Below, piece by piece: positions 1 to 43,120 of a stretch of 43,120 bases of DNA (position 1 is the stretch's first letter; every line of letters starts with the position of its first letter). Where the stretch lies: the IMG/VR virus record IMGVR_UViG_3300048911_000054; one strand, given 5' to 3'. Below the pieces are notes generated by a model that did no database searches, was not told where the DNA came from, and worked only from the letters and a program-made list of their open reading frames with translations. Origin of the DNA: a virus. The translations under genes and the position numbers were made by a program.

Positions 1-127
1 TCGGAAAGCTGTACGTTCAGGCGTGTCAGGTCTTTGTAGATGGCGATGATCCATCGCTTGAACCGGGCGAACGCGCCTTGAAGCTCTGGGTTTGGCGCCT
101 TGCCATCTGCCAAATACGCCTCAAAGC
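1..127. repeat. Terminal direct repeat, exact copy of 42994..43120 (circular-assembly overlap or terminal redundancy)
   Basis: tcggaaagctgtacgttcagg...gccaaatacgcctcaaagc read identically at both window ends, 127 nt. Confidence 0.95.
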
Positions 128-2870
128 CCCGGGCGAACTGTTCGTGCTGCTCAACCTCAAACGGACCTTCTGGCTTGGCCCCGGTCCATTCCCGAATCGC
201 CGCAACGTCCTGCTGCATCTGCAATGGCGCATCTGCATCGGCGGCCAAGTCGGTCACCACCTCAAGGTAAAAGTGCCCGAACTCATGGAGTAGCGTAGAA
301 AGGTCACGGCGCGCGGTCACAGTGATCTGGAACTTGCGCTGCTCTCCGGGCTTGCCGTCGTTGAACGTGATGTAACCGCGCGGTTCACGCGGAGCGCCGG
401 TCTGGTCAAGCTGAACTCCCTGAATTGACTCAGGATCTCGCAATATGGCAAGCACCTGATCATCACTCAGCTCGTTAAGGTTAACGCCAAGCTGGTCAAG
501 GTAGTCCTGAAGCTGCTGAAGGTTGGTGGCTTGGTCACGAAGCGTGGCGTTCTCCTGCTCGCTGCTGAAGGTTGGTTGATCATTCATGTCGCGCTGCACG
601 GCGTCGACGATAAGTTGCGGGCCAACGTCTTCACGGGCCACGCCGGGGAAGTAACCGTTTTCCCACGCACGCATCGCCGCGTCATCCAGGCTCAGGCCGC
701 CATCAGCCTTGACCAGACGATTACGACCAACCTTGCCGACGTTCACATCCAGGGCAGCAAGTTCGCCGCCGGCATCGTTCAAACCGCCGGCATCACGCAA
801 GTATTCGACCAGAGACTTGCCGAACAGATCTCTTGATTGCGGGATGTCACTGGTACGCAGACGACCTATAGCAATCCGCATATCGTCGACAGGGACGCGC
901 TGTATTGCATCAGGGGCCTTGTTGCGTACATCGAGAGGAAAGCGCGCCAGCAGCTCCTGAAGTGGCTTCCCGGTACGGTCAGCAAGAGTGGACATGGCGG
1001 ACAGGTGCAGAGCGGCATATTGCTCGGCGTCAGCACGACGGTATCCAGCCTGCTGAAGCTCGCCCATCATGCCGATGAAAGCGTCGTCACGGGCGTCTGG
1101 CGCTCGATCCAAGGTCTTGGCTAGCTCGTTGATCTGCTCTTCCTGGGCTGCCTGCCATTGAGCAGTTTCCTCAATGCTCATTCCTTCGGCCTGGGTTCTG
1201 ATCGAGTTGGCCAGCGCCGCGTGGTGTTCAGCGAAGGCCGTCAGGTAATCGGCCGTCTTCATGCTCACGGAGCCGCCGCTAGCCGTGGCTTCGGCAAACT
1301 GCTCGGACAGGCCAGGGATTCGTTCCAGCAATGCATCCAGAACTGGCGGCGCACCGTCCTGATTCAACTTGGCCAGGGCCTCTGCCGGGATGCTGATCAT
1401 CTCCAGCGGGGAATCCTTAAGCTGCTCCGTGGCCACTCCGTTGAATGCCTCGGCATCTCGAGAGCGCAGCTTGCTATCCAGCGAAGCTGCGACCATCTCG
1501 TCAAGCGTTGCCTTCCCCTGGCGGGCTTGCCGTGACTGGGCCAGGCCGTCCTTGATCGTGTCGATGATTCGGCCCCCACCGAATGTCGCGACCTCAACCG
1601 AAGACATGCCGGCACCAGCCACGGCTTCCATGAGCACATCGCCGCCACTGATCTTCTGATCGGCTGCGTACTGGCCAGCGGCCTCGGATGCGCCACCGAT
1701 AACGCCCTGAACGGGAAACTGGACTGCAAGGTTGGTGGCTTCTCGCTGAGTAGCGGTGAGCGCCTTCCCGCCAATTGCCTTGGGCACCAAAAGCTTTCCG
1801 GCGAGACCCATGCCAAGAACATCCACCGCCGTAGTGCCAGCGGCCTTACGTGCAGCCCTTACACGGGCATCGTCCATCAGCGCATCATCTTGCAGCGCGG
1901 TCAGTACGGCCTTGGGGTTGGTCAGATCGATCTTGGCTTCGCGCAGGATATCCAGAAGCTTGGCGTTGCCTTCGGTGCCGAACTCCACGACGCCAGCAGC
2001 CAGAGGCCCGCCAAGCGCGCCAGCTACCAGCATCTCAGCAGATCCAACGGCAGACCCAGCGGCAGCTCGCGCCGCATACCCTGGGTTCTCTGCTATGGCC
2101 TGGGCCATTGCCGACGCATCGCCGCCAAGCTCCTGATAACGCAGAGCTCCGGGCTCGACTGGCATCTTGTCCAGGTCAGCCTGCTTTGCAACCACATCGC
2201 TGATGGTCTCTGCCTGGCGACCCAGCAGCCGGTTGCGCATCTCCACCCGGCCTTCCGGCGTCTGCTGCATGTAGTCGAAGCCGAAGCCGGTGGGGTTGTC
2301 ACCGTTGGGATATGGGTTCTCGCCAACCAGCGCCGCACGGGTAATTTCCTGATCGATCGAGTCGAAGGACCGACGTAGACGCTCAAGTCTATCCGCGTAT
2401 CCGATGCCAGCCGCCTGCTTGCCCTGGGTGACTGCCTGCTCAACGGCGCCGAACAACTGCTCGCCAGGTGACTGGTTTTCGAACTTGGTGATCTGCTTCG
2501 CGTACTCGATGCGCGTCAGGTTGTCGATGTCATCCTGGGCCAGCGCAGCGGTCTGACCGTTAGAGAGCGCGGCCGCCGTCTTCGGGTAGCTGTCAAAAAC
2601 CGCCGCGTAACGGTTGTTCTTGAGCAGTTTTTCCATCTGATCCTGTTGGCGGTGAAGCACTTCAGCCGGGATGCCTGAGTACTTCGAAACGGCCGTGGCC
2701 TTGGCGAACTCATCAGGGTTCACCTCGCCGACCACCTCAAGGGTTGACATGAAGTCGTTGCGCTGGCGGTCCTTGGTTTGCTGAATGGCATCAGCCAGCA
2801 TCGAAGGCTGGCTGGGGATGATGTCTTCGCCTTGCTCAGGAAGCAGGCCGGTAGTCGGTACGGTTGCCAT
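1..2870 (-). CDS. N-terminal 956 codons of a 2,062-aa giant internal virion/ejection protein (polyvalent-type), continuing through the junction into 39675..42993
   Basis: ATG at 2870 in a TAATG overlap with the upstream stop. Hand translation (MATVPTTGLLPEQGED...) stays open to nt 1 and ends ...FARGFEAYLADGKAPNPELQGAFAR, the text that opens the tracked 39675..43106 ORF. HEFGH is encoded at nt 273-287. Gly/Ala-rich hydrophobic segments are present. Confidence 0.85.
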   Translation of the reverse strand, partial: MATVPTTGLLPEQGEDIIPSQPSMLADAIQQTKDRQRNDFMSTLEVVGEVNPDEFAKATAVSKYSGIPAEVLHRQQDQMEKLLKNNRYAAVFDSYPKTAAALSNGQTAALAQDDIDNLTRIEYAKQITKFENQSPGEQLFGAVEQAVTQGKQAAGIGYADRLERLRRSFDSIDQEITRAALVGENPYPNGDNPTGFGFDYMQQTPEGRVEMRNRLLGRQAETISDVVAKQADLDKMPVEPGALRYQELGGDASAMAQAIAENPGYAARAAAGSAVGSAEMLVAGALGGPLAAGVVEFGTEGNAKLLDILREAKIDLTNPKAVLTALQDDALMDDARVRAARKAAGTTAVDVLGMGLAGKLLVPKAIGGKALTATQREATNLAVQFPVQGVIGGASEAAGQYAADQKISGGDVLMEAVAGAGMSSVEVATFGGGRIIDTIKDGLAQSRQARQGKATLDEMVAASLDSKLRSRDAEAFNGVATEQLKDSPLEMISIPAEALAKLNQDGAPPVLDALLERIPGLSEQFAEATASGGSVSMKTADYLTAFAEHHAALANSIRTQAEGMSIEETAQWQAAQEEQINELAKTLDRAPDARDDAFIGMMGELQQAGYRRADAEQYAALHLSAMSTLADRTGKPLQELLARFPLDVRNKAPDAIQRVPVDDMRIAIGRLRTSDIPQSRDLFGKSLVEYLRDAGGLNDAGGELAALDVNVGKVGRNRLVKADGGLSLDDAAMRAWENGYFPGVAREDVGPQLIVDAVQRDMNDQPTFSSEQENATLRDQATNLQQLQDYLDQLGVNLNELSDDQVLAILRDPESIQGVQLDQTGAPREPRGYITFNDGKPGEQRKFQITVTARRDLSTLLHEFGHFYLEVVTDLAADADAPLQMQQDVAAIREWTGAKPEGPFEVEQHEQFARGFEAYLADGKAPNPELQGAFARFKRWIIAIYKDLTRLNVQLS

Positions 2871-5011
2871 TATTTGATTTTCACCCCAAGGCCAGAGATT
2901 CGGTTGACGTATGCAGCGATGATATTCGCTTCGCTGGCCTGCTGCCCGCTTGCACGCAATGCGTTGATTATCTCGCGCCTATCACTCGGCGGGATCTTGT
3001 CTATCTTCAACGTGCCTTTGTTCAGGTAGGTATCAGCCAAGTCTTCTGGCTTGGTCTCCCACAGCGCCTGCTCCTTATCGCCAAACAGCATGCCGCCACC
3101 GGTTAACTTGACCTTCAGCAGCAACTGGTTGGCCAGGTCTTCTGTCTCCTGAATGTTTGGCTCGCGGTCGAACTTGACCCGGAATGAGTCCTGACGCTCT
3201 TGCAGCGCGCTGCGGAACTGCTGCTGCTTTTCCAAGTTGCCAGGGGCCTTGGCCTTTGCGTTGTCGCCGGTGATGATTCCGGCCATGGCCATTGCCGTGT
3301 TCACCACTTTCTCTTTCCCAGCGGCTACCTGCTGCGCCGTGCCGTCACCGTTCTGAGCTTTCTGCCAAGCGCCCCGCACGGTGTTGAAGTCGGAATTGCT
3401 CAGATAGGGGCGGATGTCCTTCTCAAGGCCCATGGATGCCAGGCGGTCTGGTGGCATCTGCAAGAACTCCTGCAGCTTGCTGTAATCGGTAGTTGGCTCC
3501 GTACCCTTGCGGCGGTAGTCATCCATGCGCTGGAGCTTTACCAGCTCATCACCGGGCAAGTTGTTGATCAGCTGAGCCGGGATTGTCGAGAAGCCGCCAT
3601 CAAGCACGTACTTGCTGGCCTGGTCGTACAGCGCGTTCGTCTGAGCCTCATAGGCCTTTTTGCGATCATCCAGGTTGTCCATGACGAACTTCTTCAGCTG
3701 CGGATCTTGGATCGTGTTGGCCTGCTGAAGTCCGTCCGCGTACTTCTGCGAGGCCGGAACGGTTGGCGCTGCCTGCGACATGATGTTGGCCGTGTAGTTG
3801 CGCGTCTCCTGGAATGGAATTTTCTGGATGAAATCCTGCGCTGCGGTGCCTCCCTGGCGCGGGTCTGGCAACTGAACCTTGGACGGGTTCTTACCGGTCT
3901 TGTTGGTTCCGTTTATCCAATCCTCAACCATGCCAGGGCCGGCGTTGTAGGCGGCCACTGCCAGGGTTTGGTTGCCATCGAAATGCCCAAGCATCTTGTT
4001 GATGTATGCAGTGCCCAGCGCGGCGTTGTAGTTCGGATCAGTGGCCAGGCGCTCCTTGCTGTACGGAATTCCAAGCTCTCGGGACACTTCCTCGGCAGTC
4101 TCCGGCATGAGCTGCATCACGCCCAGGGCGCCCTTGGGAGACACGGCGTTCTGGTTGCCTGCGCTCTCAGCCTGCATGATCAGCGCCGGCAGCGCGGCGT
4201 GGCCAACTTCTCCCTTGTCCCAAATGTCGGCCGCCATCTTGGTTGCCATCTGCTGCCGTACAGAGGTTCCAAGCAGCTTTTGCGCCTTTATCTGGTCAGC
4301 CGCTGTCATCGTTGCGGCGGACTGGGCGTAGTACTGCTGGGCCTGCAGCGGATCGGAGGTGACAAGACGCTGAATCACGCTGCTCGCTACCTGGCTGTCG
4401 AACTGGCGCTGCTGCTCCAGGATGGCCTCTGGCGCCATGCCTTTACGCATGCCCATCTCGCCAAGCACATACGCACCCTTGCTCCGGTAGAAGGCCACCT
4501 GCTCAGGATCGTTGGCGTACTTGACGGCACCATCCAGCGACGTGGCGATATTGGCCTGGTCTGCTTGGTCGTAAAACGCGTTGCGCTGGGTGTGTTCGTA
4601 GCGGTTCAGTTCACCGCTCAGGCCCAGGCGCTGGTTCTGGACAATCCGCTGAAACTGCTCTTTCTGCCGGGCGTTGGTCAGCCCCATCCCGATCTGTTCC
4701 GCCTGCTTGTCGAACTGCGGCAGAGTCTGATTGGTGATGTCCAGTGCATCCTTACCCTGGCGCGTGTATGCCCCCCCGTTCTGGTTGAACATCAGATCAA
4801 GTCGGTTCTGCGAAAGCTTGGCCTCAGCATCCATCAGAGCGGCGTTGTCGGCTCGTTGCATCTCGCGCTGGGCCAGGTCCGCACCAACCCCAACAACAGT
4901 CTGCTGGAGTTGGTAGCCGGACATGTCAGGGCCGACAGATTGAACCTGAGGGGCCGGCAGAGCCCGGTTCGCAACCCCAGGAAGTTCTTGTGTTGGTACG
5001 GTGATAGCCAT
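2870..5011 (-). CDS. Internal virion protein with soluble lytic transglycosylase (SLT) domain, 713 aa (T7 gp15 position)
   Basis: SLT motifs AESAGNQNAVSPKGALGVMQLMPETA ... AYNAGPGMVEDWI. SD AAGGAGAG precedes the ATG. Confidence 0.85.
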   Translation of the reverse strand: MAITVPTQELPGVANRALPAPQVQSVGPDMSGYQLQQTVVGVGADLAQREMQRADNAALMDAEAKLSQNRLDLMFNQNGGAYTRQGKDALDITNQTLPQFDKQAEQIGMGLTNARQKEQFQRIVQNQRLGLSGELNRYEHTQRNAFYDQADQANIATSLDGAVKYANDPEQVAFYRSKGAYVLGEMGMRKGMAPEAILEQQRQFDSQVASSVIQRLVTSDPLQAQQYYAQSAATMTAADQIKAQKLLGTSVRQQMATKMAADIWDKGEVGHAALPALIMQAESAGNQNAVSPKGALGVMQLMPETAEEVSRELGIPYSKERLATDPNYNAALGTAYINKMLGHFDGNQTLAVAAYNAGPGMVEDWINGTNKTGKNPSKVQLPDPRQGGTAAQDFIQKIPFQETRNYTANIMSQAAPTVPASQKYADGLQQANTIQDPQLKKFVMDNLDDRKKAYEAQTNALYDQASKYVLDGGFSTIPAQLINNLPGDELVKLQRMDDYRRKGTEPTTDYSKLQEFLQMPPDRLASMGLEKDIRPYLSNSDFNTVRGAWQKAQNGDGTAQQVAAGKEKVVNTAMAMAGIITGDNAKAKAPGNLEKQQQFRSALQERQDSFRVKFDREPNIQETEDLANQLLLKVKLTGGGMLFGDKEQALWETKPEDLADTYLNKGTLKIDKIPPSDRREIINALRASGQQASEANIIAAYVNRISGLGVKIK

Positions 5012-5578: not shown

Positions 5579-6052
5579 TTACACCTCTCGTTTAAGTTGG
5601 AATTGAAAGAATGGTAGGCCTTTGGGGCCGTATGGCACAGCCTCGCCGAACTTGAACCCCAGCCATTTCAGCCAGCGAATGGCCTGAGTGTTGCGGGCGT
5701 CGACGTAGTTGATCAGAGTGTCATGCCTGGTCAGCATCTCAAGCACCTCTTCACGGCATACTCGCAGGAACGGCTTGGCGCGCCTGTCCACGTGGATCGT
5801 GCTGATCAGCCAAGGCACGCCGATGGACTGCTGCACGTCATGAACACTGTCGCCGAACACCGCAACAACCTTTCCGCCGACAACGATCTTGCTGGCCTTG
5901 CAGCTGCCGCCGAAGCAAAGGCGCAGGCCATGCTCCATCTCGATGCCAAGCGCTTCTGTGATCTCTTCAAGATCAGCCTGACGCACGATGGCCGCAATCT
6001 CTGCGGCCTCGTCGATACTTACTGGTAACACCTGCGCTTTCTGCTTCATCAC
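5579..6052 (-). CDS. Small virion-module protein with GNAT-like C-terminal signature, 157 aa (T7 gp13 position)
   Basis: ...NYVDARNTQAIRWLKWLGFKF resembles the GNAT beta5-alpha4 region. ATGA overlap with the upstream gene. Confidence 0.5.
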   Translation of the reverse strand: MMKQKAQVLPVSIDEAAEIAAIVRQADLEEITEALGIEMEHGLRLCFGGSCKASKIVVGGKVVAVFGDSVHDVQQSIGVPWLISTIHVDRRAKPFLRVCREEVLEMLTRHDTLINYVDARNTQAIRWLKWLGFKFGEAVPYGPKGLPFFQFQLKREV

Positions 6053-8424
6053 TTTCTCCCCGCCAATGTCAGTTCAGGAATGATAGCGAGAACCGTGATA
6101 GGTAGTGGGTCTAACTGCCTGATGAAAACCTGTCCCTGGCCATCCCAATCGTTCGGAATGTTAATCCGCCCGGCGCCAGAAAGAAGCTCTGTAGGATCGT
6201 TATAGTTTTCGAACTCGCGCTGCTTCAGCTCGTAGAAAGTTTTGCCTTCGCCGGCAGACGCGAATATCCCGCGCGACTCATCCACCACCACAGTTACCGA
6301 CGATACTGTTTTGTGCTTGTCGTTCAATGTCTCCTGGCCTTGGATGTTGATGCGCAGGGTTTCAATGTCACTGACGTAAGGCAGTCCTATGTGGGCCACC
6401 GCAGCGTGGTCTGGAAGGGTTACGGCACCCCCTGATACCACCAGGTTTATTGGCGTCGAATCAGGTCCGTTTTGGCTGACAACATTCCCATCCGCCAGGA
6501 TAGCCACACCTTTCCCCTCGATATGGGAAAGGCCGCCAAAGGTCTTCAGAGCCAGCGCCCAGTTCACGACGGGGACATTACGTAGACCCACAGGCACTAC
6601 GCTTGCAGGCACCACGGACACCACGCCTGGCGAAACGTAGGAGGTCACGTCAAGCCTGAGAATATTTTGCGTCTGCGGATCTCTCATGTGGATTTGCCGG
6701 CCAACGTCTGCCGCGCTGAAACCTGAGCCGGATGAACTGGTTACGTTCATCGGTTCCGGATATTCCCATGTCACGCCACCAGACAGGGTGTAGGTCGTAG
6801 TCCCCTGGTTCCACCCCTGGTAGCTAAGCCCGCAATCCACGAAATACGACTGGGCCACATCACGCTCCTGAGTGCCGCGAATCAGCGGTATCTGGCGAGA
6901 CTGCATTCGCTCAATGTAGCGCCGTGTAACGCCCTGGATGATGCGGCGCACCACCATGTAAACGATGTCGTCAGAGCCCTCGGGGATGCAGGTTATTGAC
7001 TCGACGAAGCCGTCAGTCTCGTGTTGGTGCCAGGCCACAACGTCCTGCTTCTTCATGTAGGTAAGGCCCAGTAGGGCGCCGTCGCCGCGAACAGCCCACA
7101 CAATCGAATCAGGAAGCTTTTGGTAGGTCCATTCGATCACTGGATAGTCACGGAAAAGGTGTGCGCTCCAGATTGTCAGATCGTCACTCGCAAGCCCATC
7201 AGCCTCAAGCGAGTAGTTCAGGGATGAAACGGCCTGGCCACGGCCCTGCAGATACAGAGCGGTGTCGTTCAGTACAAGCGGCGGAACAAAGCCTGAGCCG
7301 TTATAGCTCTGTGGATTGCCATTGATAGTCTTGCCGGTAAATCCCGACGTTGCCCCTGCGATGATCCATTCAGCGCCTGATGTCAGCGTCAAAAGCTGGC
7401 GCAAGGGTAGGTAGTTCAGAATCCTGTTCACCTCGGTGCTGGCCATTGTCCAGGTGATCGCGTCATCATCCTTGCTCGGCGTGGCGTAACCGAAGTTGTT
7501 AAAAACACCGGTTCGACTGAAGTAGCTGGTCTGTGGCCTGTTGAGAGTGCCGCCGTATACCTTTCGCTGTTGGTAGTAGCCAACGGCGCCCGGATAGTTG
7601 CCAGCCCCCACAAACGGATCAAGGCCAGATGGAGGCGTATCAGTCTTTGTCGGCGTGATGTTCACATCGGTGAAGGTCGCGGTAGTTGATCGACCTGTGA
7701 AGCCGTATACGCCAGCACCAGAGTTATCCTTGTAGATGTTGTAATAAGTTGCACCGGAAACTGTTGGCCAAGTCACAGTGGCTTGCAGGACGCTGGCGAA
7801 CACAGTTATGGCGTTTGACGTGACAGGAAGCGATTCCTCTAAAGTGTTTGCATCGTCATATACGGCCGTCACTTGGTACCGCCAGACCTGAGTATTTCCA
7901 GTGCCGCCGGCAGGTGTAGCAGTTGCCGAAGCGGGCGCTGCAATAGATGGCAGATAAGTAGCCTCAGTCAAAGTCCAGTTGTCATTGGCAAAACGCTTAA
8001 GCTCACGCGGACGGTATAGCGTGTGTACGAATGTCATCACGTCAGCTGACTGGGTGAAGTTCAGCTGGGCCAAGTCGGCCAACGTATATGGTGTGACCAG
8101 TTCGAAAGGTTGGCCGATATTTGGGCCGGCGCTGTTCACAACGTACACACCGTTGCGCACGACTCGCATCTTGAGATTGCTGAACACCAATACACAGGCA
8201 TCGCTGATGCTGAACTTGAAGCGGATCAGCCTGACCTGCTCATTGTTTACAGTCTGGTCGACGTAGCGAGTTCCAGGGCGATTGCGGACGCCTCCCTGTG
8301 ACATGACCGTGAAGTTCTTGCAGGTCTTCAGGCTTATCTGGTAACGCTGCAAATCTACCCGTGCGCCAAGGGCTGGAGAGATCTCCCCGCCGCCAAAACT
8401 TGGCTGAATGACAGAGATGCCCAT
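6049..8424 (-). CDS. Tail tubular protein B / nozzle-like protein, 791 aa
   Basis: Start moved to ATG 8424 (MGISVIQPSFGGGEISPAL...), with SD GGAGG, one nt after the stop of the upstream gene. Size and position match T7 gp12. Confidence 0.7.
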   Translation of the reverse strand: MGISVIQPSFGGGEISPALGARVDLQRYQISLKTCKNFTVMSQGGVRNRPGTRYVDQTVNNEQVRLIRFKFSISDACVLVFSNLKMRVVRNGVYVVNSAGPNIGQPFELVTPYTLADLAQLNFTQSADVMTFVHTLYRPRELKRFANDNWTLTEATYLPSIAAPASATATPAGGTGNTQVWRYQVTAVYDDANTLEESLPVTSNAITVFASVLQATVTWPTVSGATYYNIYKDNSGAGVYGFTGRSTTATFTDVNITPTKTDTPPSGLDPFVGAGNYPGAVGYYQQRKVYGGTLNRPQTSYFSRTGVFNNFGYATPSKDDDAITWTMASTEVNRILNYLPLRQLLTLTSGAEWIIAGATSGFTGKTINGNPQSYNGSGFVPPLVLNDTALYLQGRGQAVSSLNYSLEADGLASDDLTIWSAHLFRDYPVIEWTYQKLPDSIVWAVRGDGALLGLTYMKKQDVVAWHQHETDGFVESITCIPEGSDDIVYMVVRRIIQGVTRRYIERMQSRQIPLIRGTQERDVAQSYFVDCGLSYQGWNQGTTTYTLSGGVTWEYPEPMNVTSSSGSGFSAADVGRQIHMRDPQTQNILRLDVTSYVSPGVVSVVPASVVPVGLRNVPVVNWALALKTFGGLSHIEGKGVAILADGNVVSQNGPDSTPINLVVSGGAVTLPDHAAVAHIGLPYVSDIETLRINIQGQETLNDKHKTVSSVTVVVDESRGIFASAGEGKTFYELKQREFENYNDPTELLSGAGRINIPNDWDGQGQVFIRQLDPLPITVLAIIPELTLAGRK

Positions 8425-8425
8425 T

Positions 8426-9067
8426 TCAGTACCTCCAGCCATTCGTGCAGAACGGACCGCCAGACTCTCGTCCCGTGATGTAGTCCACACTTGCGCCAAG
8501 GATATCGCCAGTCGACTCGTTAAGATCCTGCGATGCAGCCAACTGCCAGGCCTGGATGTATCCTGCCATAGCGTTCTGCACAACCGATGTCTGCGCAGTC
8601 ATCGGCACGGCGATCAACTCGGCAAGCTTCCATGACAAAGCCTCAACAAACAAAGGGGGGAATCTGCCGGCGTCGGTGATGCGCACAACGTAAGCCAGCT
8701 CAGCATCCTGCTCATTGGTCCAGATTACCTGTCCACCATCGCCATATCCGGTGTTGAAGTTCTGGCGCTCATGGATAGATTGCGGGCGATATATGCGCCC
8801 GGCCGGCGTCAAGTGCATGGCCTTCAGGCAGTCAGTCGGATACTGGTACTGATAGAGCCAGCCTCGTGGTGGTGTTCCGATCAGCGCCAGCGTGGCGATC
8901 TTGGTTGCGAACTGCCAAGGGAACTGGGCCAGCGCTGTATCACGAGCCAGATCCCAAAACCTGTTGCATACCTGCAGAGCCTTGGAGCGCTCTTCCAGGC
9001 TGGCAACAGTCTCTGAAATCCCGATGTTGCCAAGGGCCATGTTGTAAATCTCGACCTGCGATGTCAT
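8426..9067 (-). CDS. Head-to-tail adaptor / tail tubular protein A-like, 213 aa
   Basis: N-terminus MTSQVEIYNMALGNIGISETVASL is typical of podovirus gp11-like adaptors. It lies immediately upstream of the nozzle gene. Confidence 0.6.
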   Translation of the reverse strand: MTSQVEIYNMALGNIGISETVASLEERSKALQVCNRFWDLARDTALAQFPWQFATKIATLALIGTPPRGWLYQYQYPTDCLKAMHLTPAGRIYRPQSIHERQNFNTGYGDGGQVIWTNEQDAELAYVVRITDAGRFPPLFVEALSWKLAELIAVPMTAQTSVVQNAMAGYIQAWQLAASQDLNESTGDILGASVDYITGRESGGPFCTNGWRY

Positions 9068-9131: not shown

Positions 9132-9593
9132 TTACGCGTCCGGCAGGTTGTCGTCCTGCTCTTGAACCTGCGCGGCTTGCTGCGGGCTCAGCGTGGACTT
9201 GGCAGCATCCTGGTTAAGGCGATCAGCTTCGGCCTGAGCCTTAGCCTTGGACTCGCCATTCTTGCCCTTCACGGCTTCGAACAGCTCACCAACGCGGTTG
9301 CCATCAGCATCGATCACTTCGAAGTTGCCAACCGGTACATGGCGCACGGTGAACTGAACGGGCACTGGCGTGAAAGGGGCAGAGGAAGGAACCGAGCCAA
9401 CTTCAGGAACCGGAGCAACCGCTGGCGCCGGAACCTTGCCGGCCTTCTGGTCCTTGGTCAGCTTTGGCGTGCCGTCGGCATTGGCCAGAACCATCCAATT
9501 GCCCGGTTCTTCATCGTCAGGGATTTCAAACCGCTCGCCCGCTTCCCGCAGATGACCGTAGAACCCCAATGCTTTCGCGATAACGAGCGGCAT
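9132..9593 (-). CDS. Hypothetical head-module protein with Pro/Ala-rich linker, 153 aa
   Basis: ORF with a coding-like codon pattern. It sits between the decoration gene and the terminator. Confidence 0.6.
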   Translation of the reverse strand: MPLVIAKALGFYGHLREAGERFEIPDDEEPGNWMVLANADGTPKLTKDQKAGKVPAPAVAPVPEVGSVPSSAPFTPVPVQFTVRHVPVGNFEVIDADGNRVGELFEAVKGKNGESKAKAQAEADRLNQDAAKSTLSPQQAAQVQEQDDNLPDA

Positions 9594-9602
9594 ACGGCCT
9601 CC

Positions 9603-10034
9603 TTACAGGTAGTCAGGGTAGTTGAAGTTGAAGTTCGCACCGTCAACGATGTGAGCCGAAACGACGCCCGCGGTCATAGGGCCGGTGGCGACCGTGTAGT
9701 TCACCCGGGTGTATCGGCGCGTTGGGATCGGGAAGCCAACCCAGAAGCCTTTTCCAGCAGTCAGCTGAGCCAGAGAGAACGGGCCCAGGCTAGCCACGTC
9801 GGCGAAGGTCACGTTATCTGCAGAGTCTTGCAGGGTCGCTTGCAGGGTCGCTGCGCCGGCGGCGGTGAAGGTCTGACTGACGTTGACGAACAGATAAAGC
9901 GGAGTGCCAGCGCCCAGGTCACGACCAATGGCCGGGTTCCTGGTTGCGCCAGCGTCCACAACGTTGGTGCTGACAGCGGTGGCGGTGACTGTCTGCTTGT
10001 CCGAGTACTGCAATTGCTTGTCGAGAATAGTCAT
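9603..10034 (-). CDS. Capsid decoration/cement protein (BPP-1 Bbp16-like by recollection), 143 aa
   Basis: Beta-rich 143-aa ORF directly after the major capsid gene. The family call is from memory. Confidence 0.55.
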   Translation of the reverse strand: MTILDKQLQYSDKQTVTATAVSTNVVDAGATRNPAIGRDLGAGTPLYLFVNVSQTFTAAGAATLQATLQDSADNVTFADVASLGPFSLAQLTAGKGFWVGFPIPTRRYTRVNYTVATGPMTAGVVSAHIVDGANFNFNYPDYL

Positions 10035-11078: not shown

Positions 11079-11825
11079 TTATTGCTTCGGTGTAAACACG
11101 TCGCCAAACATAACGTCGGCCGCACGTTTGTCCTCTGTTACGGATGCATCAGAGCCTGGGATTACCAGCTTGTCTTCGGAGATGGCCAGGCCTATCTTGT
11201 GCATGCCGCGAATCAGGGCTGGGTTGTTGCCGATGCCTGAGTCGTTGAGCAGTTGACGGAAGTCGTCCCCGAAAAAAGTGGAAATGGCCTTAACGGCCGT
11301 GGAAACAGTTGAGTCGAACTTGGCACCGCCAAGCTCGGGGTCGGTCTTGATCTCGTTGACCCATTTGTCGCTCTGGGCCTTCAGAGCCTGCTCAAGGAAC
11401 TCTGCGCGCCCTGTCTCGCCTGCGGCAGCTGTCTTGGCCTGCAGGTCAACCAGCTTTTGGGCCTGGGCCTGGGTCAATCCAAGCTCCTTGGCCAGCCCGT
11501 TGAACTCAGTGAGCATGGCCTCGTCGACCTGCACGCCTTCTGGAAGCTTGTAGGCCTCGTAGGTCTCAGGCACTTCATTGGCCTTGTCCTCGGCAGTCTC
11601 CCGCGCAAGCTTGGCTTCTGGAGTCTCTGCGTTGTCCTTGGCTGCCTGCTCGGCTTCCAGCTCGCCTACGGTCTTGCTGGAGTTGATGTCGGCCAGCGGG
11701 TCAGTATTGGCCGGCGCAGCATCAGCAGCTGGTGCAGCTTCAGAACCACCGCCGCCCAACAAGCTGTCGCCGCCTTCTTCCGCCAACAAAAAATGGCCAA
11801 GGGCCCTGTGAATAAACATGTTCAT
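11079..11825 (-). CDS. Scaffolding protein, 248 aa
   Basis: Acidic, Ala/Glu/Lys-rich and helical, between portal-associated and capsid genes. Start set at ATG 11825 (the track uses TTG 11831). Confidence 0.7.
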   Translation of the reverse strand: MNMFIHRALGHFLLAEEGGDSLLGGGGSEAAPAADAAPANTDPLADINSSKTVGELEAEQAAKDNAETPEAKLARETAEDKANEVPETYEAYKLPEGVQVDEAMLTEFNGLAKELGLTQAQAQKLVDLQAKTAAAGETGRAEFLEQALKAQSDKWVNEIKTDPELGGAKFDSTVSTAVKAISTFFGDDFRQLLNDSGIGNNPALIRGMHKIGLAISEDKLVIPGSDASVTEDKRAADVMFGDVFTPKQ

Positions 11826-11827
11826 GG

Positions 11828-12139
11828 TCAATTACCCTTCTCGGTTTTCGTCGTGTTCTCGTTGATCATCACCTGATACTTCTCGGGACAATCGGTTTGG
11901 ATCTTGCTGATCAGCATCAGACCCACGTTGCGGCGCCCTTCCATGTATGCCATCTGTGCGTGACTTTCAATCGGCATTGCCTTGAACGCCCCGAACTCTT
12001 GCAACATGAACCATACGAAGCGCCTGCCGCCGTCTGTGGCCATTATGCCCCGAAAGTCATCCGACAGTTGGTGTTCGCGCATTGCGGCCAACCTGCGAGC
12101 TTCCAGGGCCTCCTTGGCCGTCATGCCTTCTGTATTCAT
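11828..12139 (-). CDS. Small conserved head-module protein (Bbp19-like by recollection), 103 aa
   Basis: ATGA-type overlap with the portal stop. Motif FVWFMLQEFG...MAYMEGRRNVGL. Confidence 0.5.
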   Translation of the reverse strand: MNTEGMTAKEALEARRLAAMREHQLSDDFRGIMATDGGRRFVWFMLQEFGAFKAMPIESHAQMAYMEGRRNVGLMLISKIQTDCPEKYQVMINENTTKTEKGN

Positions 12140-39674: not shown

Positions 39675-42600
39675 CTACTTGGGTTCTTTTGGCGGCCCAA
39701 ACATCAGGCCTCGGATGAATTCCAACATATTGTCGTCTTGACGCTCACCACGCTCAACGCTGAATAGGTACTTGATTGTCCGCTTAGGCTGGGCGGTAGG
39801 CAGGCCAAACCCCATGCCGACCACATCCATTGTGGACATCGTTATTTTCTCAGCATCTACATCATCCTGACCTATAGCCGCAGCCAAGCGCGTTGCCGAT
39901 TTAAATACATCGCCGATAGGGGTTGCTCCTGAATAGGCCCACCCGCTTTCCAGGCTGCTCGCCACATCACGAAGCAACGGAACTGCCATCAAAGGATAGG
40001 TTGCCACCTTCAGCGCCGCCCACTTGGCATATGAATCGTCATCCTTTGGGCCTTGACCGGTCATCAAAGGTGCAAGAACAGCCGGCATTGCGATCAGGAA
40101 AATGGTCCTTTCAAATGCGCTCAGATAGTCCTTCACGCCTTGGGCTGTCTTCATGCTATGTACCAGATCGGCCTGGCGGTTATAGAGCAGGTTGAAGTAG
40201 CTGTAGACGATTGTGAGAGCCTTCATAAGTCCATCCTTGCGCTGCACGGCTGCAAGGTCTTTCGGGCCGCCAGACATCTGAGATAAGCGCACGGCGCGGT
40301 CTCCCATTGCCACCGAGGTATCCAACGTTTCGCCGTCGGCCATTCCCTTGTGATACGCGGCAAGCCATGTAGGATAATCAACCATCGACTGGATGATGCT
40401 GATGTGCTTAAAAGCCAGACGTTGAATTACGGCCTTCGGACCGGTACGACCGCTCACGCGCTTCAGAACCTCGCGCATATTGTTGTCCAGGTTGGCGTCA
40501 CGGTTACGCATCTCCCCAGACAGTGACTTCACGAAAGCGATGGTTTTGAATGGCTGGCGTACAAACTCCAGCATGCCCTGCGGCAGATACTTGCGGGCTC
40601 CGAGCTGAGCAAGATGCTCCCAGCTTTGCGAGAAGCCAAGAATCTGCTGAATGCCAGTGGTGGCGCTGAAGCCCATCCAGCCCACGGAAAGGTTGGCGCG
40701 CAAAGTGCTGGATAGGTTGGTCCAAGCATCGATACCTTTCCGGCTGTCCATCACCATGTCATTGGCAACACCCTGTAGCCATGGGTTGAACTGGTTGGCA
40801 ATGTTAACGCCCAGCGTCTCGTTCAGCGCCTGCTTGACCTCCTTGTTGCTGATGATCTTGGCCGCGTCGATGATCGCCTTACGGTGCGTCAAGTCGTGGA
40901 TGACCTGGCCCAAGTGGCTGGCCACAATACTGGTGTCCAACATGATCGGCGCCGCGAAGGAATCAACCCGTGCCTTGGTGTGTCCCTTGGGCGTGGTGGC
41001 CTTGGCATATCCCTGCTCAAACAGGCCGGTGTTGTCGGTAAGGTTGTTGGCAACCTGGGCGTATTCAGGTGAGCTTGTGTCGTACACCAGAGGCCAGTAG
41101 CCGCCGCTGTACTCCCCATATTGAGTGCTGACAGGGGTCGCGACGATCTTGTCTGGCGCAACGCCGTGCAGGTCTTTCTCCAGTTGCTCGATTTGCGGCC
41201 AAAGGCGCTCAACCAGATCCCACTGGCTCTGCGCGAACTCCCAATCATCCTTGTTCATGTTGCGCAGGATCGCGCCCAGCTGGTTTTCGTCCCAGCCGTA
41301 ACCCTTCAGCAGCTTCTCCCGGTTTCCGGCGTTACCGGTGTTCAGGGCGGCGCTGATAATTGCGTTGCGGGTCAGAGACTGGCCGATCTCCGGGATATTG
41401 ATCTGCTCGCGCATTGCCCGCTGGCCGCGCGCATCGATGTACTTGTCGACGTTGGCCATCAGCTGCGTGGTGAACTCTCGGTTCAGATCATCCTTGGCTG
41501 CCTGGGCCTCCACAAACGGTTGCCAGAAAGTGGTGTGCCATGGCCCCTCAATGTCGCCATCGTCCAGCCACTCAACGATTTGTTCCATTTTGAGTAGCGC
41601 TGCAGACATGCTGCTGGCCCAGTCGCCCATGCGTTCCAGTGCTGTCAGCGTGCCTTTATCGATTGGTGGCGCCTTGCGCTTGCCCAGGTTTGCATAAGCC
41701 GCCTTCACCAGCAGATCCTTGGCCTCAGCGAAGTCCTTCAGGCGTTTGTTTGCCAGTAGCTTATTCTTCAGGCCGGCCAGGTGATTCACGTTCTGTACGA
41801 AGTCATTCAACTCGGATAACTGGGCCAGAGACAGATCCTTGTAGTTGACCTTCTGCGAGGTGTTCAGGATGAACTCAGGAACATCCGGCTCATTGCCCTG
41901 CGCCAGCTGGTCGGCGTACCACTGAGCAAACGATACGCGCTTATCCAGATCGCGCAGGCTGACATTGCGGAACTCGTACTGCTCCATGACCGCATCGATC
42001 TGATCCAGGTAGGAGTGCCCGGCCTTGCCCAGCTTCTCCCGGCGCGTCGACTTGTTGAAGTCAGCCATGCGATTTACGATCGAGTCGATTTCGTCGCGGG
42101 CCTTCTTGGCCTCACGCCACAGGTGATAGTTCAGCAACTGTTGCTGCTTTGCCTCATAGGCCGCGGCCAAGTCACCCTTGGCGGCCGCTTCGAAAGCCCG
42201 GCGTCCAGCCTTGCCTTCTGCGCGCTGATACTCGAAAGGCTGGATGTCGCGCACCTTTCGGTTCTGCATGATGCGTTCTGCGGCGGCCTTAAGGACTTGC
42301 TGGCTAGTGATGTTCTTGCGGTTACCCTGCTTGCCCAGTGCATTCAGCTCCTTGAGCAGAACTGCGCCGCGCTTCTCGTTGTGCACAGCGGCCATGGCTT
42401 TCTCAGTCGAGGCGCCATCAGCGCGCGCGCCGTGGCGCTCCATCATGCGGGCCTGGGTCTCTGCAAGGATGGCTTCGCCGCGCGGAGGTGCACCAAGGAT
42501 GGCCTTGATCATCTCGTCGCCGGATTTGAAGCCCAGGATCTGAGCGGAGATGTCCATCGGGATACCGTCTTTGCCATGCATGAACGCCAGCTTGCGCAAT

Positions 42601-43120
42601 ACGGCGGTACCGTACAGATCCTTGATCTCGGACCCCTGCAGCTTGATGTTCTGCTGGGTGCCGTCTGGCATGATCCCTTTGCGCAATGCGCGGATAGCCT
42701 GGTACTCCGGCAGCGTATCCAGCTCTTCTGAGACTTCGGCGGCAATGCGCGCAGACTCTTCGCCCCACCACTTGCTGCGGCGCTGCTCTTCTTCGCGGAT
42801 CACTTGCTGCTCAACCGTGGTCGCGGCTTCGGCGTGGGCCAGGTCAACCTGGTCGCGGTAGGCTGCGAACTCGGTTTCCGTCATGCCAGCCTTGGCCGCG
42901 CTTTCGAACATGGGCATGGCCTGGGTCACGTCCTGGGCTGCGCGGATCTGGTCATCAGTTGCAACGATTCGATCCATCACGCCACGTATCTCATCGGAAA
43001 GCTGTACGTTCAGGCGTGTCAGGTCTTTGTAGATGGCGATGATCCATCGCTTGAACCGGGCGAACGCGCCTTGAAGCTCTGGGTTTGGCGCCTTGCCATC
43101 TGCCAAATACGCCTCAAAGC
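39675..43120 (-). CDS. C-terminal ~1,106 codons of the same giant virion protein (42994..43120 duplicates 1..127)
   Basis: The tracked 1143-aa ORF begins at an internal TTG. It is in frame with 1..2870 across the junction (6189 nt = 2063 codons). It occupies the T7 gp16 position, just upstream of the tailspike. Confidence 0.85.
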   Translation of the reverse strand, partial: FEAYLADGKAPNPELQGAFARFKRWIIAIYKDLTRLNVQLSDEIRGVMDRIVATDDQIRAAQDVTQAMPMFESAAKAGMTETEFAAYRDQVDLAHAEAATTVEQQVIREEEQRRSKWWGEESARIAAEVSEELDTLPEYQAIRALRKGIMPDGTQQNIKLQGSEIKDLYGTAVLRKLAFMHGKDGIPMDISAQILGFKSGDEMIKAILGAPPRGEAILAETQARMMERHGARADGASTEKAMAAVHNEKRGAVLLKELNALGKQGNRKNITSQQVLKAAAERIMQNRKVRDIQPFEYQRAEGKAGRRAFEAAAKGDLAAAYEAKQQQLLNYHLWREAKKARDEIDSIVNRMADFNKSTRREKLGKAGHSYLDQIDAVMEQYEFRNVSLRDLDKRVSFAQWYADQLAQGNEPDVPEFILNTSQKVNYKDLSLAQLSELNDFVQNVNHLAGLKNKLLANKRLKDFAEAKDLLVKAAYANLGKRKAPPIDKGTLTALERMGDWASSMSAALLKMEQIVEWLDDGDIEGPWHTTFWQPFVEAQAAKDDLNREFTTQLMANVDKYIDARGQRAMREQINIPEIGQSLTRNAIISAALNTGNAGNREKLLKGYGWDENQLGAILRNMNKDDWEFAQSQWDLVERLWPQIEQLEKDLHGVAPDKIVATPVSTQYGEYSGGYWPLVYDTSSPEYAQVANNLTDNTGLFEQGYAKATTPKGHTKARVDSFAAPIMLDTSIVASHLGQVIHDLTHRKAIIDAAKIISNKEVKQALNETLGVNIANQFNPWLQGVANDMVMDSRKGIDAWTNLSSTLRANLSVGWMGFSATTGIQQILGFSQSWEHLAQLGARKYLPQGMLEFVRQPFKTIAFVKSLSGEMRNRDANLDNNMREVLKRVSGRTGPKAVIQRLAFKHISIIQSMVDYPTWLAAYHKGMADGETLDTSVAMGDRAVRLSQMSGGPKDLAAVQRKDGLMKALTIVYSYFNLLYNRQADLVHSMKTAQGVKDYLSAFERTIFLIAMPAVLAPLMTGQGPKDDDSYAKWAALKVATYPLMAVPLLRDVASSLESGWAYSGATPIGDVFKSATRLAAAIGQDDVDAEKITMSTMDVVGMGFGLPTAQPKRTIKYLFSVERGERQDDNMLEFIRGLMFGPPKEPK
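42994..43120. repeat. Second copy of the 127-nt terminal repeat
   Basis: Identical to 1..127. Confidence 0.95.

Follow-up and report, generated by a model that had tools for sequence, protein, structure and literature searches.

The 43,120-nucleotide (nt) viral record IMGVR_UViG_3300048911_000054 (the window, i.e. the whole stretch of DNA analysed) raises the question whether an open reading frame (ORF) that runs off one end of the linear sequence and resumes at the other is a single gene, and what the resulting giant protein of 2,062 amino acids (aa) does for the phage. The ORF was confirmed to be one real gene that crosses the circular junction. On balance, its product is best read as the largest internal-virion (ejection) protein of a podophage of the AF/HU1/BPP-1 type and as a polyvalent carrier whose hydrophobic-x-Q sites are probably cleaved by the zincin that it carries itself.

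Nt 1–127 of the window are identical to nt 42994–43120. This exact direct repeat of 127 nt indicates that the record is a 42,993-bp circle that was opened arbitrarily, and the length of the repeat would fit a k-mer overlap of the assembler. Feature counts made on the linear record count the 127-nt stretch twice, the true genome being 42,993 bp. On the circle, the giant gene occupies the minus strand from an ATG at 2870–2868 through nt 1 and nt 42993 to a TAG at 39677–39675, a length of 6,189 nt that encodes 2,062 aa and a stop, and its ATG overlaps the TAA (2872–2870) of the upstream 713-aa ORF as TAATG. The first-pass annotation, made from the sequence alone, had traced this frame from ATG 2870 through the junction and had noted that the full gene is missing from the ORF list; both points hold, and the listed linear ORF, 39675..43106, does begin at an internal TTG (43106–43104), which is Leu920 of the full protein. 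The peptide FARGFEAYLADGKAPNPELQGAFAR corresponds to aa 912–936. Re-circularisation and re-reading of the frame, which had been set as a check, gave an exact in-frame repeat and a single 2,062-aa ORF.

The closest cultured relative, Pseudomonas phage HU1 (AP019415.2; identity of 84% at the nt level in the 5' part and of 96% at the aa level in the C-terminal part), has a single uninterrupted coding sequence (CDS) of 6,189 nt at the same place, following the gene of a 'structural lysozyme'. Furthermore, at least 12 metagenomic proteins, each exactly 2,062 aa long, can be aligned over their whole length with 94–96% identity. An artefact, i.e. two genes fused through the overlap of the assembly, or a repeat that conceals a frameshift or stop, is suggested by the passage of the ORF across an assembler-made junction and by the 1,143-aa piece that is all that ORF callers give on the linear record, but is dismissed with near certainty because independent assemblies (HU1 and the many independent 2,062-aa proteins, which are gapless across the junction) agree; the repeat is exact and in frame, the 2,052-aa Bbp10 of phage BPP-1 is collinear, and the stop or frameshift that the first-pass annotation had warned of is not there. 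The gene is not new, and is annotated as hypothetical in HU1, AF and BPP-1. For annotation in general, ORF callers applied to linearised circular assemblies miss or truncate this giant gene, and re-circularising restores the largest protein of the phage.

From the N to the C terminus, the protein consists of an LPD22 domain, Gly/Ala-rich helices, a hydrophobic-x-Q site at Q504, a 320-aa module, a second such site at Q823, an HExxH zincin, and a helical scaffold of ~1,100 aa (Table 1). In a comparison of 120 close homologues mapped onto the window protein by collinear blocks, all 120 were collinear over aa 1 to ~824 and ~820 to 2062, and 84 of them carried 100–940 extra residues at one point, aa ~822–830 (Q823/T824). 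In the others, which include the window protein and that of HU1, nothing is found at this point. The inserts are of at least 25 types among the 84 homologues, and as many as four or five modules can follow one another. Those identified by Pfam are GNAT acetyltransferases, ART-PolyVal, PBECR1, PBECR5, LPD3, and LPD23 accompanied by a second zincin. Protein P0005 is 96% identical and has the layout of the window protein with one addition, a 112-aa GNAT module that lies exactly between Q823 and T824 (...GVQLDQ/SVTRE...EPRLNQ/TGAPREPRGY..., slashes marking the borders). The DNA of this GNAT cassette is 336 nt long and in frame, and has a G+C content of 50% as compared with ~60% in the flanks. The linker at the hot spot is predicted by AlphaFold2 (AF2) to be flexible, with a predicted local distance difference test score (pLDDT) of <50 at aa 817–828. 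The domains recognisable in the window allele are just LPD22 and the zincin, with no effector recognised by Pfam at the cargo site, and this allele is the minimal, cargo-free form with an empty slot.

The family is very large, and the zincin and the C-terminal scaffold are what its members have in common. A profile of the C-terminal 1,143 aa matched 11,414 clusters (50% identity) at E ≤1e-3, including 7,128 at E ≤1e-30, and the family match always lies at the C terminus of the cluster proteins. All counts for distant members refer to the best 145 of the 11,414 cluster representatives, which have lengths of 848–4,200 aa. LPD22 is present in 74 of the 145. The N-terminal blocks are separated from the zincin by a median of 426 aa (maximum 2,257 aa), and this stretch includes PBECR3/5, ART-PolyVal, LPD3, RadC/JAB, and modules without an assignment. 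The largest members, P0197 (4,200 aa), P0196 (3,725 aa) and P0290 (3,637 aa), have 1,800–2,250 unassigned residues ahead of the zincin. In gp16 of the Octadecabacter virus OANV1 (2,986 aa; contig L004, 1538–10498), ~1,050 additional residues separate the N-terminal blocks from the zincin. A Foldseek search of BFVD with the scaffold model returned 62 matches at E ≤1e-3, which are C-terminal pieces of giant proteins from uncultured phages with names such as ART-PolyVal-like, LPD-containing, N-acetyltransferase, nuclease, and MuF C-terminal.

Every boundary of an insert module carries the motif L-[NDE]-Q. The inserts contain 187 such sites; R or Q stands at P4 in 71% of them, and the P1' residue is in most cases G, S, T or A. 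The 33 GNAT modules have a near-constant length between delimiters, with a median of 113 aa (range 112–138). The two sites of the window protein have counterparts in distant members. The Q504 column is Q in 90 of the 91 representatives aligned there, with the consensus Y-F-Q-S, and in 126 of 132 the first strand of the zincin is preceded, within 35 residues, by a hydrophobic-x-Q motif that mostly has L, F or Y at P3, against a background of 43% (p 2e-38).

In the AF2 model, aa 830–950 look like a minimal zincin, with a β-hairpin at 832–851, a helix with HExxH at 857–876 and a helix with HEQFARGFE at 906–922. H862, E863, H866, E870 and residues 909–917 are invariant in the 20 full-length homologues compared. 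The zincin is present in 141 of the 145 distant representatives, and HExxH is kept in 137 of these 141. Within an alignment of 30% identity, 'LSTLLHEFGHFYLEV...EQHEQFARGFEA' of the window aligns to 'LSTFLHESGHFFLEV...HHEQFARGFEA' of Bbp10, aa 700–1000 of which served as a seed for the 'CLCA_X' family of zincins, which is frequent in phages and plasmids (Lenart et al. 2013, PMC3650047). The CLCA_X zincins are relatives of the self-cleaving N-terminal metalloprotease of CLCA and share HExxH and a downstream acidic ligand with the giant protein, whose membership rests on homology to the seed Bbp10. No phage member of CLCA_X has a known protease activity or cleavage site. AF gp16 (protein P0082; contig L002, 11463–18104) contains a second HExxH zincin (HEIQH) after LPD23 and upstream of the conserved one; hence some alleles have two metallopeptidase-like domains.

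The LPD22 domain is the sole Pfam recognition in the full protein. Pfam searches with seven sub-segments at E ≤10 gave noise only, with no lysozyme, SLT, crystallin or further effector family, and a PDB sequence search with a profile of 20 homologues gave a best E value of 1.6. In phage AF, the second half (aa ~650–823) of the module between the two hydrophobic-x-Q sites is replaced. Hidden Markov models of its two parts found aa 505–650 in 113 and aa 651–823 in 75 of the 145 distant representatives, and the Gly/Ala-rich helical region, found in 21, is the least conserved part in the wider family. PHROG 9880 matches aa 829–2060 with E=0. AF2 models of aa 1–956 and aa 920–2062 were made separately from a 53-sequence alignment. 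Both halves are predicted to be helical almost throughout, and pLDDT falls below 50 inside the conserved region just at aa 817–828 and 423–436.

All structural genes are encoded by the minus strand, in the order major capsid, Bbp16-type cement, tail tube A, tail tube B, T7 gp13-like, T7 gp14-like, SLT protein, giant gene, and tailspike. The giant gene thus occupies the T7 gp16 position, as the first-pass annotation had stated, with Phage_T7_Gp13, T7_gp14 and SLT matches upstream and, downstream, a tailspike bearing an N-terminal T7 tail-fibre (adaptor) domain, the ATG of which is 11 nt past the stop of the giant gene. The same gene order, with the giant gene between the SLT virion protein and the fibre or spike, is found in BPP-1 (the Bbp10 locus), AF, HU1 and contig L007, and the proteins at this position have 2,213 aa in AF, 2,062 aa in HU1 and 2,052 aa in BPP-1. 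Bbp10 (NP_958679), HU1 BBI47332.1 and AF gp16 share position, size class, LPD22, the HExxH zincin and the C-terminal scaffold with the window protein. Over 99–100% of the length of the C-terminal part, identity is 96% for HU1, 62% for AF and 30% for Bbp10. AF gp16 has the module of LPD23 and the second zincin where the window protein has aa ~650–830. Bbp10 aligns to aa 849–2049 at 30% identity and to the LPD22 region, with the N-terminal blocks also aligned, whereas its middle is largely unalignable. The papers on close relatives give this gene no function, and no experimental study of Bbp10, HU1 BBI47332.1 or AF gp16 was found in the literature. Bbp10 has been assigned as a homologue of IVP-D/T7 gp16 in the epsilon15 subgroup using podovirus-only libraries (Hardies et al. 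2016, PMC4819975, Table 2).

T7 gp16/IVP-D is likewise the last and largest gene of the gp13-gp14-gp15-gp16 module, and its product is likewise predicted to be all-helical. The giant protein is much larger, as had been pointed out, with 2,062 aa versus 1,318 aa in T7 and 918 aa in epsilon15 (gp17). T7 gp16 lacks a zincin, LPD22 and a cargo slot. In T7 proper, the lytic transglycosylase domain is N-terminal in gp16, whereas here, in agreement with the first-pass annotation, SLT (PF01464) is found in the preceding gene, which encodes the 713-aa protein. Given the synteny, the place assigned to Bbp10 in the literature and the framework of polyvalent proteins, it is quite likely that the giant protein is packaged and ejected.

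Polyvalent proteins, and LPD22 as a possibly enzymatic domain, were defined by Iyer, Burroughs, Anand, de Souza and Aravind (Iyer et al. 2017, PMC5512222). These proteins were predicted to be delivered with DNA, and zincin peptidases to separate their domains during deployment; the peptidase domains were considered as effectors in their own right as well (PMC5512222). The resemblance to such proteins that had been noticed from the sequence is borne out. LPD22, one of their defining domains, is present in the window protein (E 1.5e-19), and in the homologues a zinc peptidase shares its chain with ART-PolyVal, PBECR, LPD3, LPD23, RadC and GNAT. Several disparate effector domains per chain, as in polyvalent proteins, are not seen in the window allele but occur in 84 of the 120 homologues. 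Polyvalent proteins are associated with a zincin peptidase of the MPTase type; that of the giant protein is missed by Pfam MPTase-PolyVal and belongs, per the literature, to the CLCA_X group instead. A single insertion site or hydrophobic-x-Q delimiters were not found in Iyer et al. 2017, where the words 'linker' and 'hot spot' are absent. According to published accounts (PMC4819975; PMC13434306), the virion RNA polymerase (vRNAP) gp50 of coliphage N4 and gp60 of Pseudomonas phage H66 are very large internal-virion proteins whose ejection-protein scaffold carries an enzyme working in the cytoplasm. Their cargo is fixed (RNA polymerase or methylase), with no exchangeable slot, and they are likened to the giant protein by architecture.

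In the mechanism proposed, the scaffold would bring the giant protein into the capsid core beside the gp13-like, gp14-like and SLT proteins. At infection, the protein would be ejected through the tail and may help to build a trans-envelope conduit. The zincin could then cut after the Gln of the hydrophobic-x-Q sites and so free N-terminal pieces inside the host, and in loaded alleles the same cut would release effector cassettes there (acetyltransferase, ADP-ribosyltransferase, ribonuclease-like, and others). Cleavage by the zincin at these sites, which the sequence pattern suggests, is a tentative proposal. A bolder and somewhat more doubtful one is that the family represents a natural plug-in cargo system, in which a conserved ejection scaffold with one slot receives in-frame cassettes; the virion would inject the effectors as a string, and the adjacent CLCA_X-type zincin would cut the delimiters to set them free.

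Several results weigh against a self-processing ejection protein related to T7 gp16. The zincin region gave no match to Pfam MPTase-PolyVal even at E ≤10. The confidence of the AF2 models is moderate, with a mean pLDDT of 72.5 for aa 1–956 and 67 for aa 920–2062 and predicted template modelling scores of 0.41 and 0.51, respectively. Foldseek searches of PDB with the two models, each a whole half of the protein at moderate confidence, returned nothing at E ≤0.001, neither T7 gp15/gp16 nor a zincin; among the 50 matches listed for the C-terminal part (74 at E ≤10), no T7 core protein was present. This is weak negative evidence because the models are only moderately confident and whole multi-domain queries are poor. 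Searches with hmmsearch and BLAST against T7 gp13–16 and epsilon15 gp13–17 gave no match. The hhalign comparison with the epsilon15 gp17 family gave a probability of 0.6% and then of 5.5% (P 0.007, 377 collinear columns), and that with T7 gp16 gave 0.8%, neither being significant; the homologues retrieved for T7 gp16 were all at least 94% identical and hence gave no useful alignment. Thus, the T7 gp16 position is evident, and homology rests on the literature because profile comparisons are below significance. The Gly/Ala-rich stretches that the first-pass annotation had related to membrane insertion are present (36% Gly+Ala over aa 255–445, including AAAGSAVGSAEMLVAGALGGPLAAGVVEFG at aa 269–298, nt 1977–2066) and make a membrane-inserting protein plausible. 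Their 19-residue Kyte-Doolittle peaks of 1.25–1.54 are marginal for transmembrane helices, and the reading as transmembrane segments, for which no dedicated predictor was run, was rejected as their hydrophobicity is too weak. Finally, no virion proteomics or N-terminal sequencing of any family member was found in the literature, and that on AF, Ab31, UFJF_PfDIW6, BPP-1, OANV1, Tenacibaculum phage Gundel_1 and Xanthomonas CP2 includes no virion-proteomics data for the giant protein.

The alternative that fares best is a structural ejection protein that is packaged, ejected and stays intact, the motifs serving as domain caps or linkers for folding or cassette exchange and the zincin acting on a host target, e.g. 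an envelope or defence protein. N4 vRNAP, a giant internal-virion fusion with a peptidase-like domain, is reported to be packaged unprocessed, and ArdC and TraC1 are likewise transferred unprocessed despite a peptidase domain (PMC5512222); Iyer et al. also regard such domains as possible effectors themselves. The motif could be a structural domain cap instead of a cleavage site. L502-N503-Q504 is at the end of a confidently predicted helix and not in a long disordered linker, and the window allele has no recognisable cargo to release. On the other hand, the motif brackets every cassette with a protease-like P4–P1' pattern, closely precedes the zincin in 95% of the distant members and, at Q823, lies in a linker predicted to be disordered; moreover, GNAT, ART and ribonuclease-like enzymes more plausibly act as free proteins. 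We therefore consider an intact protein unlikely.

Cleavage at the hydrophobic-x-Q sites might instead be due to another protease, a phage maturation or host enzyme, the HExxH domain having a different role. T4-type prohead proteases, which cut packaged internal proteins at short L/I-x-E motifs, are a close formal analogue, and the window encodes a protein of a PHROG 'protease' family (phrog_458; 11079–11831). To our knowledge, no prohead protease that acts on the capsid is known in this phage type. The product of 11079–11831 is an acidic, Ala/Glu-rich, scaffold-like protein with no Pfam protease domain, the other virion proteins encoded in the window show no enrichment of L-[NDE]-Q, and zincin and motif co-occur in nearly every family member. 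Another phage protease is unlikely because the capsid proteins of BPP-1 are uncleaved (PMC3863775) and because this sole 'protease'-labelled ORF is of such a kind; the prohead-protease idea was rejected, and the alternative as a whole is judged distinctly improbable. A lysis protein, a 'lysin' or a protein with a β/γ-crystallin motif, as the names of GenBank/RefSeq relatives ('crystallin beta/gamma motif-containing protein', 'lysin', 'lysis protein') would have it, is scarcely credible, as no lysozyme, SLT or crystallin Pfam match is found anywhere in the giant protein, the muralytic SLT domain lies in the separate upstream gene, and the predicted fold is almost wholly helical. The label of OANV1 gp16, 'lysin containing a beta/gamma crystallin motif', follows BPP-1 and appears to have been propagated without domain support.

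The self-processing polyvalent carrier is of wider interest. The prediction that polyvalent proteins are injected and afterwards divided into individual effectors dates from 2017, and no report of a cleavage site or of a responsible protease was found in the literature. The slot, the delimiters and the adjacent zincin make this prediction directly testable, as they amount to a rule: one slot, hydrophobic-x-Q delimiters, an adjacent invariant zincin, and alleles that occur naturally, empty as well as loaded, in near-identical phages in culture (HU1, AF, BPP-1). If true, this rule would provide the first defined cleavage code for phage polyvalent proteins, covering >10,000 protein clusters, would explain how podophages swap early-acting anti-host enzymes, and would offer a chassis for delivering chosen proteins into bacteria, the window allele being the empty chassis. 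The gene itself is ordinary and of an already annotated kind; the organisation of the family (slot, delimiters, zincin) was not found to have been described before.

Table 1. Location of the giant gene, its parts and the neighbouring genes in the window (nt positions; aa numbers refer to the product of the gene concerned).
Feature	Position	Strand	Basis or remarks
Giant gene, 5' part: codons 1–956 and 2 nt of codon 957	1..2870	-	Open frame, translation; collinear with HU1 CDS
Giant gene, 3' part: rest of codon 957 to codon 2062, TAG 39677–39675	39675..42993	-	Frame; 96% aa identity to HU1 (aa 920–2062)
LPD22 domain, aa 46–124	2499..2735	-	Pfam PF18834, E 1.5e-19, 70.5 bits vs cut-off 28.6; in 120/120 listed homologues
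Gly/Ala-rich long helices, aa ~257–430, weakly hydrophobic	1581..2102	-	Composition; AF2 helices 263–311, 329–359, 373–404, 409–421
Hydrophobic-x-Q site 1, L502-N503-Q504, then D505	1359..1367	-	L502, N503, Q504 invariant in 20 full-length homologues
Internal module, aa 505–823, bounded by two hydrophobic-x-Q sites	402..1358	-	Block mapping; no Pfam match
Hydrophobic-x-Q site 2 and cargo hot spot, L821-D822-Q823 / T824	402..410	-	Empty in window allele; AF2 pLDDT <50 at aa 817–828
Predicted zincin-type metallopeptidase domain, aa ~830–950	21..383	-	H862-E-F-G-H866 (nt 273–287), Q908-HEQFARGFE917 (nt 120–146)
C-terminal all-α scaffold, aa ~961–2062	39678..42983	-	PHROG 9880; AF2 almost entirely helical, mean pLDDT 67
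Most hydrophobic segment, aa 1913–1939, AFERTIFLIAMPAVLAPLM	40047..40127	-	Kyte-Doolittle peak 1.54
Terminal direct repeat, copy 1	1..127	.	Exact match; circularisation overlap of assembly
Terminal direct repeat, copy 2	42994..43120	.	Duplicate of nt 1–127
T7 gp13-like internal virion protein, 157 aa	5579..6052	-	Pfam PF11090 (Phage_T7_Gp13), 26.3 bits vs cut-off 25; phrog_308
T7 gp14-like internal virion protein, 184 aa	5022..5576	-	Pfam PF24072 (T7_gp14), 46.2 bits vs cut-off 27; phrog_418
SLT (lytic transglycosylase) virion protein, 713 aa, T7 gp15 position	2870..5011	-	Pfam SLT PF01464, E 3.6e-27; phrog_10475
Tailspike, 967 aa	36760..39663	-	Pfam Phage_T7_tail N-terminal domain; tail PHROGs

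Some further genes of the structural region deserve comment. The 250-aa ORF 11079..11831 (minus strand; PHROG 458, 'protease') is labelled 'endoprotease' in AF and epsilon15. Its product has no Pfam match, is apparently helical with a Gly-rich N terminus, and to judge from its composition looks more like a scaffolding protein than a protease. The tail tube B ORF 6049..8583 (minus strand) encodes 844 aa from a TTG and shares ~160 nt with the tail tube A ORF upstream; its real start is probably internal because the PHROG match sets in at residue 54 and the annotated HU1 protein has 791 aa. The 153-aa ORF 9132..9593 (minus strand), which separates the cement-protein gene from that of tail tube A, is matched by neither PHROGs nor Pfam, and its product includes R-L-N-Q-D near the C terminus (aa 125–129), the same pattern as in the delimiters of the giant protein, which may be due to chance. 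The products of 9603..10034 and 11828..12139 (both minus strand) match the jellyroll cement protein Bbp16 (PF21190) and Bbp19-like proteins (PF25181), respectively. Thus, the capsid module is of the BPP-1/epsilon15 type, and the module for tail and internal proteins matches T7 families.

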